DNA of 59,285 bases, counting the filler, from Dugesia japonica (Eukaryota), in assembly GCA_001938525.1 (NCBI GenBank). It is 5 parts of 5 records of this genome, joined end to end, with 100 filler letters (N's around TTAATTAATTAA, not from the genome) between each part and the next. Parts side by side here need not be neighbours in the genome. Positions count along the whole stretch, not along the records: positions 13,807 to 28,786 come from MQRL01640136.1; 4 more parts are not named here. One strand, 5' to 3'. The notes under the pieces were generated by a model. That model was given only the letters and a program-made list of their open reading frames with translations. It made no database searches and was not told the DNA's origin. This document shows positions 20,496-22,376 of this stretch, piece by piece (the first letter of the stretch is position 1; every line of letters begins with the position of its first letter). The position numbers were made by a program, and so were the translations under genes.

Positions 20496-22376
20496 CAAGC
20501 TATGATGATACTCGGGAAATCGCCAACACCAGTATTCGTATTAAGTCAGTTAAGCCATCGAGTTAAAGCATTGGGTACCGCGACAATCTATCCTATAATT
20601 CCACGAACACAAACACCGGTAACAGAAAACTGTTGTGCTCATTTCTCCCGAGTGACATGACCATTCTCACCAACTGTAATCGAGGCAAGTTGCCTTATAT
20701 GTATACGGAAAATGCAATCAATTTTGAAAACAGCATTGCGGGAAATCGCCGATCACAGACTGGTGTTGTTACAGCAAGACAAACTCAGTGGAAGACGTTG
20801 CCAGAAAATGCATGATAAACTGGAGGTTCAGGTGCCATTGACTGTCAACGAATTACACACTTTATGCGCACGTTGTGTTGGCATTTATAATGAAACCCTC
20901 ACTCGAGCTATTGAGAATTTCCATACGATATTAATAGTGTGGGACTGGTTAGTACTATGGTCTCAACCAGTTGACCCTCCACCATGGAGTGGTCTAGAAT
21001 CATTATTAAGAAAAAGAAATCTCAGCGAGGACGCCGAGTCTGAAGAAGATGGGGAAGGGGAACTAACGGAGAAAGATGGGAATTCGGAAGAGAAAGCGGA
21101 CATACAACCAAAAGAAGATGAAAGGATAGAAACAGAATTGCAAAAAATAACGCAATTATTGAAGGAGGGCGTATTAAAATATGCAGACAAACAAAGGAAA
21201 GAAAGGAAGCTGAAAGATAGCGGGGCATCACGTCAGAATTTTCATAATAAAATCAACAACGAAAACACGGATACGGGAAAGATGGCATTAGTCACCACCG
21301 AATCGAATAATTCGAATAAATTGGTTATGCCTTAAATAATTAAGACACCAAGTATTAGTCGTCCTTCTCAAACTCCAACAACATTATCTATGATTAACGA
21401 TAAATCAGCCATTATAGCACAAGAAGTTAAAACTGTATCTTTTGGTTTAGATAATCAAATGCGTTGACCACTGGCAATTGAAACTATGAATACCACTACA
21501 TGCTATACAATCACATGCCAGGGGAGTCAGACACCAAGATCCGAAGAAAGTTGCAATCACATTAACCATATAACTTGTCCGCTGTCAGCACTGCAATTGG
21601 AGGAGAGTTGTTTACAATGTATCCAACAAACACAGATAATATTAAAAAATGCACTAAAGGCCATTCACGATCAAAAAGCATAGCTATCCAAACCAGAAAA
21701 TTGGTTCAGGAAAGACTGTGATGGGTCACAAATTAAAATACCCATTCAAGCACCAATTCGTGACTCTGTTGTCAAAAAATTATGCATGCCATGCACAGAT
21801 ATTTATAGTCAAGAATTATTAGCGTCAATTCATGTATTTCACCATACATTAGTGCTATGGAACTCGATTAGAGTATATGAACCATCGGATATCCAATTGC
21901 CATGGGGCATGGTCGAACCAAATATTCAAAGTAAACACAAACTAAAAAATATGACGTCACTAGACATACGATCAGACGAATTGGCTTGTAGGAAATCGAA
22001 ACCAATCATTATCACGAATCCTCATGAAGGGTTACAAAAACAAGTGAAATTGATGAGAGAAGCATTTCAGGGTCAATGGGATGGAATGAAGGAAGAAGAG
22101 AGACAATCAGTCAGAATAACACCTGGAAGGGCAAAACAGATGAAAATGACATTGGTACAAGATGAGGTGGATCAAACAGAACCAAGAAAATCAAAAAACG
22201 AGTTACCCCAAGGAAGCAAGAATGAGATTACAGTGGAAATAATAGTCATAATAGCTCTGTTGTTATGGACAGTAATCAACACAAATTAGGACCATGGCAT
22301 ATTATTTTGGTTAATCATGAAACTAATCGGAAATATGGGAAAAGGGTGTCCAACATCGATTATGAAATATGGAACC
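20496..22376 (+). pseudogene. In-frame extension of integrase with two 111-aa Cys/His-rich repeats and terminal hydrophobic segments
   Basis: ORFs at 19362, 20370, 20712, 21486, 21786 and 22317 are all in one frame, separated only by stops. The repeats lie at 20613-20945 and 21531-21863. Confidence 0.8.

Follow-up and report, generated by a model that had tools for sequence, protein, structure and literature searches.

Among described systems, the element reported here comes closest to the Burro-type giant Gypsy retrotransposons of planarians, in which a Gag with a CCHC knuckle is followed by an in-frame env, a protease (PR) and a reverse transcriptase-RNase H-integrase block (RT-RH-IN), according to the section of PMC6431247 on these elements. 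Burro1 also carries a BIR-RING region, and the portion of PMC13465017 that deals with it, citing Lee et al. 2026, states that a Burro-type BIR-RING supports planarian stem cells.

We analysed an AT-rich stretch of DNA of 59,285 nucleotides from Dugesia japonica (assembly GCA_001938525.1), referred to below as the window, which contains a decayed copy of a large Gypsy element. Since Gag-CCHC, env and protease are absent from the window copy, we call the element Burro-like rather than a member of Burro. Behind its integrase lie two copies of a Cys/His-rich unit. The reading that we prefer, with a probability of about one half, is that these units are a lineage-specific, probably zinc-stabilised, cytosolic accessory module that would bind protein after being cut off the integrase.

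Layout of the element

All parts of the element described here are on the + strand. The decayed upstream accessory coding region (14234-17500) is a set of ORFs in several frames with a helical domain at 17060-17500. It gave no convincing Pfam match. A Gag, a CCHC knuckle, a fusion protein and a protease were all looked for there and not detected, comparison with the related polyprotein P0123 gave no match in its Gag, env or PR, and + strand PR or CCHC motifs were found nowhere inside the element. Searches did not confirm that 17060-17500 is BCL2-like, as the shape of a motif had suggested, or that 16090-16350 is ubiquitin-like. Reverse transcriptase and RNase H follow at 17479-19170 (RVT_1, E 2e-33; RT_RNaseH, E 9e-15), with a stop at ~18739, and then comes the integrase at 19284-20354, with its H2C2 finger, core and SH3-like end (Integrase_H2C2, E 4e-17; rve, E 2e-12). 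Both the RT-RNase H-integrase order and the domain types are those of Ty3/Gypsy elements. At 17495-17510 the helical domain abuts what is left of the pre-RT domain, six residues at 17507, and this remnant suggests that env and protease were lost by internal deletion.

Downstream of the integrase, an AT-hook-like motif (20421-20444) and a basic Y-x-L-R-S tail (20475-20495), the hallmark of the integrase end in relatives, precede the first Cys/His unit (20613-20945). An acidic linker, a short helix and a Ser/Thr-rich spacer (20991-21494) separate it from the second unit (21531-21863). Further on in the unit frame, hydropathy analysis located three hydrophobic segments (22227-22418), namely a predicted membrane anchor at 22227-22277 (hydropathy 2.25), a segment at 22296-22328 and a signal-peptide-like segment at 22377-22418 (1.62). 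They are followed by what remains, with frameshifts, of a type I membrane protein (22419-23848), with a beta-rich part, a Thr-rich stalk, a transmembrane helix (23732-23788, hydropathy 2.81) and a basic tail, interrupted by an assembly gap at ~23073-23122.

Two more ORFs are probably part of the same element. The first (26100-26903), on the other side of an assembly gap at ~25462-25511, is decayed and ends in an IAP-type RING that starts at ~26784 (zf-C3HC4_3, E 2e-10) and has the cIAP and XIAP RINGs as its best PDB matches (E 3e-7 to 2e-6). The second (26961-27680) encodes 239 aa, is helical throughout and coiled-coil-like by eye, and has no Pfam match. A C-x2-C...H-x3-C cluster upstream of the RING may be an eroded BIR; searches for a BIR domain in the element gave no confirmation. 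Self-BLAST and a repeat search of the window, with gaps at both ends of the region, revealed no LTR pair. Runs of N (13707-13806, 28787-28886 and others), each with a stop linker for all six frames in its middle, bound the element, the ends of which are not seen.

The remainder of the window holds an unbroken 799-aa ORF on the - strand (3220-5619), TRP-channel-like in that it combines ankyrin repeats and a weakly matched ion-transport domain; a DXD glycosyltransferase ORF on the + strand (55847-56701; Gly_transf_sug, E 1e-14); another, fragmentary Gypsy family represented by three related pieces on the - strand (39557-41691, ~49000-49400 and 57270-58546); and a MITE-like element (52118-53072) with 132-nt inverted repeats (97% complementarity, with 691 nt between them).

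The two Cys/His units are diverged copies of one domain

Each unit is 333 nt long, the two are offset by 918 nt, and both are in the integrase frame. Copy 1 and copy 2 align over 111 residues with 38 identities and without a single gap; the local alignment score is 194, compared with 28.2±5.1 (maximum 57) in 5,000 shuffles. The initial annotation had proposed a duplicated 111-aa Cys/His domain in the integrase frame, with its significance and the conservation of its Cys and His to be checked, and all of this is upheld. Both copies have two His and six of their seven Cys in common, giving C8, H10, C27, C30, C63, C85, C88 and H104 as the shared ligand-type residues. Cys makes up 6.3% of the units, as compared with 1.1% of 538 flanking tail residues. 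At the DNA level, the copies are 49% identical (51/59/37% by codon position, the third being the most diverged), with pN of 0.44 and a saturated pS of 0.75. Since third positions are least alike and pS is saturated, the copies diverged as protein under constraint. The similarity is wider than the 333 nt of each unit, extending over ~20577-20990 and ~21495-21908 (~12 residues upstream and ~15 downstream), and a weaker helix is present beyond these limits.

It had further been proposed that each copy is built of two C-(H)...P...CxxC-helix halves. Cross-half comparisons bear this out in three of four cases (p 0.009-0.016) but not in the fourth (p 0.14), so that support for the two-halves structure is only modest. 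Five occurrences of the pattern P-x9-C-x2-C were counted over all six frames of the window, four of them inside the units.

The copy in the window is interrupted by in-frame stops at 20658 (unit copy 1) and 21681 (unit copy 2). Further stops in the same frame are found at 20301 in the integrase, at 21333 and 21465 in the region between the units, and at 22287 in the hydrophobic segments.

Post-integrase regions of related elements

The best integrase relatives are 47-56% identical to the window integrase. In a quick tree, for which 42 of the 121 rows were taken (the top 14 and every fourth), the window integrase falls in one clade with P0003-P0006, P0022 and P0123 (SH-aLRT 99), and the chromodomain-labelled rows P0010, P0113 and P0122 (Pfam PF00385) fall outside this clade; the integrase tail pieces gave no Pfam match to Chromo. 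P0123 (3,735 aa) contains, in this order, Gag-CCHC, a Monjiviricetes-type (mononegaviral) fusion protein (E 1e-91), PR, RT, RNase H and integrase. The window element is 46% identical to it in RT-RNase H (over 497 aa) and 43% in integrase, with no match in Gag, env or protease. A metagenome scan retrieved four distant loci with 26-34% identity, and of two viral scans with the integrase one retrieved nothing and the other ten distant loci. Gypsy integrases are present in many prokaryote genome records (L005-L082), most likely as eukaryotic contamination, and the records of P0003-P0006, P0123, L005 and L006 derive from metagenomes and MAG contamination.

All five independent extended relatives (P0003/L005, P0004, P0005/P0123, P0006 and L006, the tail of the last being judged by eye; P0022 ends inside the integrase) run in frame from the integrase into a segment that resembles a leader and then into a beta-rich ectodomain. 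In three of the five this ORF also encodes a stalk and a transmembrane helix, and four have a basic Y-x-L/F-R tail after the integrase. The P0006 tail resembles Fn3 clusters (Atlas 0.93, 180 shared features), whereas Pfam fn3 gave only faint matches (E 0.2-0.7). In P0123, the fusion protein between Gag and protease and the post-integrase membrane protein make two membrane proteins in one polyprotein.

The first hydrophobic 12-mer is 38, 44 and 43 aa from the integrase end motif in P0003, P0004 and P0005, respectively, versus 624 aa in the window; the P0006 leader is below the hydrophobicity threshold, and this protein is scored only at its transmembrane helix, at 388 aa. From the basic tail to the leader, relatives have a spacer of ~30 residues. 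In the window, the basic tail (from 20475) is followed by ~580 extra residues, which include both units, and then by the hydrophobic segments at 22227-22418. The Cys/His unit is absent from every relative fetched. Judged from these layouts, the units are an in-frame insertion between the basic integrase end and the membrane segment. A profile built from eight Fn3 repeats of the relatives did not match window positions 22400-23500, so the homology of the window ectodomain to theirs rests on layout.

The initial annotation had compared the units with the targeting chromodomain of chromoviruses, placed next to an AT-hook. The comparison with chromoviruses is not supported: the integrase clade is separate from chromodomain-bearing relatives and its post-integrase region consists of a leader and a membrane protein. 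The AT-hook survives as the AT-hook-like motif at 20421-20444, but as a sequence motif only; such motifs are also found in 4 of 121 other proteins, and in P0123 the motif is far upstream of pol. One may still propose that the units stay on the integrase as a long tail that, together with the AT-hook-like motif, tethers it to chromatin and steers insertion. The units do lie in the integrase frame near this motif, starting 87 aa past the end motif, and retrotransposons recurrently capture chromatin readers, as reported in the relevant part of 10.1101/2021.11.30.470311. Against this stand, besides the clade, relatives whose integrases are 47-52% identical and which do without the units, the membrane-like segment that comes after the units, and the failure to match any chromatin-reader family in Pfam. 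Furthermore, among contigs sampled from other copies, the peak depth (which is not copy number) is at 20433-20493, on the AT-hook-like motif and basic tail and not on the units. We consider targeting by the units possible but unlikely. Likewise unlikely is the wider reading that combines an integrase fused in frame, throughout the clade, to an Fn3-type second envelope-like surface protein with a new four-part zinc fold that the window lineage keeps on the integrase to steer insertion.

Family searches and predicted fold of the unit

Profile searches with the unit found no family match in Pfam, NCBIfam, PHROGs or PDB, in agreement with the description of the domain as unrecognised, and profiles of known zinc-finger families (ZAD, RING, PHD, B-box and the ClpX ZBD) did not match the decayed units, a state that limits the power of such searches. 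A region search of P0001 for unit homologues was negative for all 44 candidates, the two-copy profile matched none of 568 longer proteins, and none of 24 pattern matches in viral contigs proved to be a homologue. With phmmer, a single match was obtained among 1.84 billion representatives, a low-complexity repeat protein judged spurious. An HMM of the two copies likewise retrieved nothing, either from 718 kb of sequence in 92 loci (best E 0.89) or from 122 other proteins (best E 0.25). Since the databases searched contain few animal repeats, these blank results are weak evidence of novelty. In the literature surveyed (search listings and passages of papers, among them PMC8532177, PMC13238120, PMC5408684 and PMC10680173) neither such a domain nor an integrase-Fn3 membrane protein fusion came up; primary Burro papers and their supplements may bear on the novelty of both, and they or the Repbase GYPSM1 entry may annotate post-integrase domains.

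The AlphaFold2 model of the unit, made from two sequences, is of low confidence (pLDDT 49.6). It has helices at residues 20-49, 78-89 and 94-110, which begin at or around each CxxC, and leaves the knuckle regions unmodelled. Hydrophobic moments are 0.37-0.54 for three of four helices, and the fourth is barely amphipathic (0.16). Fold searches with this poor model yielded no Foldseek match in PDB, a best E of 4.5 in BFVD and a best Z of 5.9, with generic helices only, in VIA; for the stop-free part of copy 1 alone, the best ESM Atlas score was 0.78. With eight shared Cys and His, each unit would have the ligands for two zinc sites, and we regard the unit as an unclassified accessory domain and a candidate new zinc fold.

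A C-x-H knuckle together with a long helix that opens with CxxC has the look of treble-clef zinc folds. The unit could accordingly be a remote, eroded version of a known zinc finger of this kind (ZAD, B-box or RING-derived) that was taken up from another element or from a host gene. The IAP-type RING testifies to other host-like cargo in the element, and two decayed sequences limit the sensitivity of any search. The lack of any match in four profile libraries, the one spurious hit in the phmmer search and the generic helices returned by the fold searches, albeit with a poor model, make this origin improbable.

The units directly precede an env-like membrane protein and share an even number of Cys (six), as they would if their Cys formed disulfides in its lumenal or extracellular domain. 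Copy 1, however, has no hydrophobic leader ahead of it, the first hydrophobic segment being located after both units. Moreover, CxxC pairs accompanied by a conserved His make metal binding likelier than disulfides. We therefore hold the disulfide reading to be very improbable.

Other copies of the element and transcripts

Other copies were sampled as contigs from four public runs. Contigs of many divergent copies cover 30 of 30 bins of 19284-23060. In X1, where the contigs listed have depths of 5-11, summed depth is ~335-1,800 over the unit bins and 5,500-32,700 over the integrase, figures that are not copy numbers. Four of the six tail stops (20301, 21333, 21465 and 21681) are absent from most copies, and there is no majority indel in 20250-22050 among the differences listed. 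It follows that in the active family the frame is likely open from the integrase through both units. Among the rows listed, two majority differences fall inside unit Cys codons (C30 and C63 of copy 1), and both are silent. The Cys/His units are a multicopy family trait. One contig skips 913 nt from 20513, which is about one repeat period. The differences listed, 40 rows with a further 1,193 and 76 beyond them, do not include the stops at 20658 and 22287. If the stop at 22287 is common to the copies, the membrane protein has an ORF of its own in this element.

RNA was surveyed in two poly(A) runs, about a quarter of each being read. No reads were detected over the units; the 15 and 5 reads recovered from the two runs are all less than 90% alike and are all at the integrase end, where they match 20250-20371 and then diverge. 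To judge from these reads, the expressed element is a relative with a different or more distant tail.

That the units are passenger sequence without function for the element is the least credible reading, for although the window copy is dead, the units drew no RNA reads and one contig lacks a repeat period, 34% of the residues and the Cys pattern have been kept without gaps while synonymous sites are saturated, and the frame is kept across the family.

Proposed role of the units

According to the preferred reading of a cytosolic module cut off the integrase, one lineage of Burro-like giant Gypsy elements would have inserted a duplicated domain between the integrase end and the membrane segment. 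Each half, a knuckle-like C/H followed by P-x9-C-x2-C opening a long amphipathic helix, would bind one zinc and offer its helix for dimer or partner contact. Since in this clade the integrase is made as one chain with a membrane protein, it would have to be freed. The ~30-residue spacer of the relatives places the cut, from spacing only, probably just behind the basic tail. In the window element, a cut at that point would put the units on a product of their own, which the predicted anchor at 22227-22277 would tether to the cytosolic side of a membrane. This product, like the IAP-type RING of the element, may serve particle assembly or host manipulation.

Burro-type giant Gypsy elements gather accessory domains, and the duplicated Cys/His module would be a handle on assembly, host manipulation and site choice. 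Specialists may find the integrase-leader-Fn3-stalk-TM fusion, seen in extended relatives, equally interesting.

Comparison with known systems

In the treble-clef ZAD and the ClpX zinc-binding domain, a CxxC opens a long amphipathic helix and further ligands lie upstream, and the unit would be alike in both respects. It differs from them in its P-x9-CxxC spacing, its two halves and its two copies, and matches neither profile.

With chromovirus integrases the window element shares an extra module placed in frame after the SH3-like integrase end. Unlike them, it belongs to another clade and has, in place of a chromodomain, an extension of ~600 aa that runs into membrane segments.

As to Burro/GYPSM1, the window copy is unlike these elements in that it is without Gag, env, protease or a detected LTR, and the passages of PMC6431247 and PMC13465017 that describe them mention neither a duplicated Cys/His domain nor a post-integrase membrane protein. 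The likeness runs through P0123, which has the Burro order and with which the window integrase groups. Like Burro/GYPSM1, the element is of Gypsy type, large and present in many copies, and it carries numerous accessory domains, here including an IAP-type RING and a long helical ORF.
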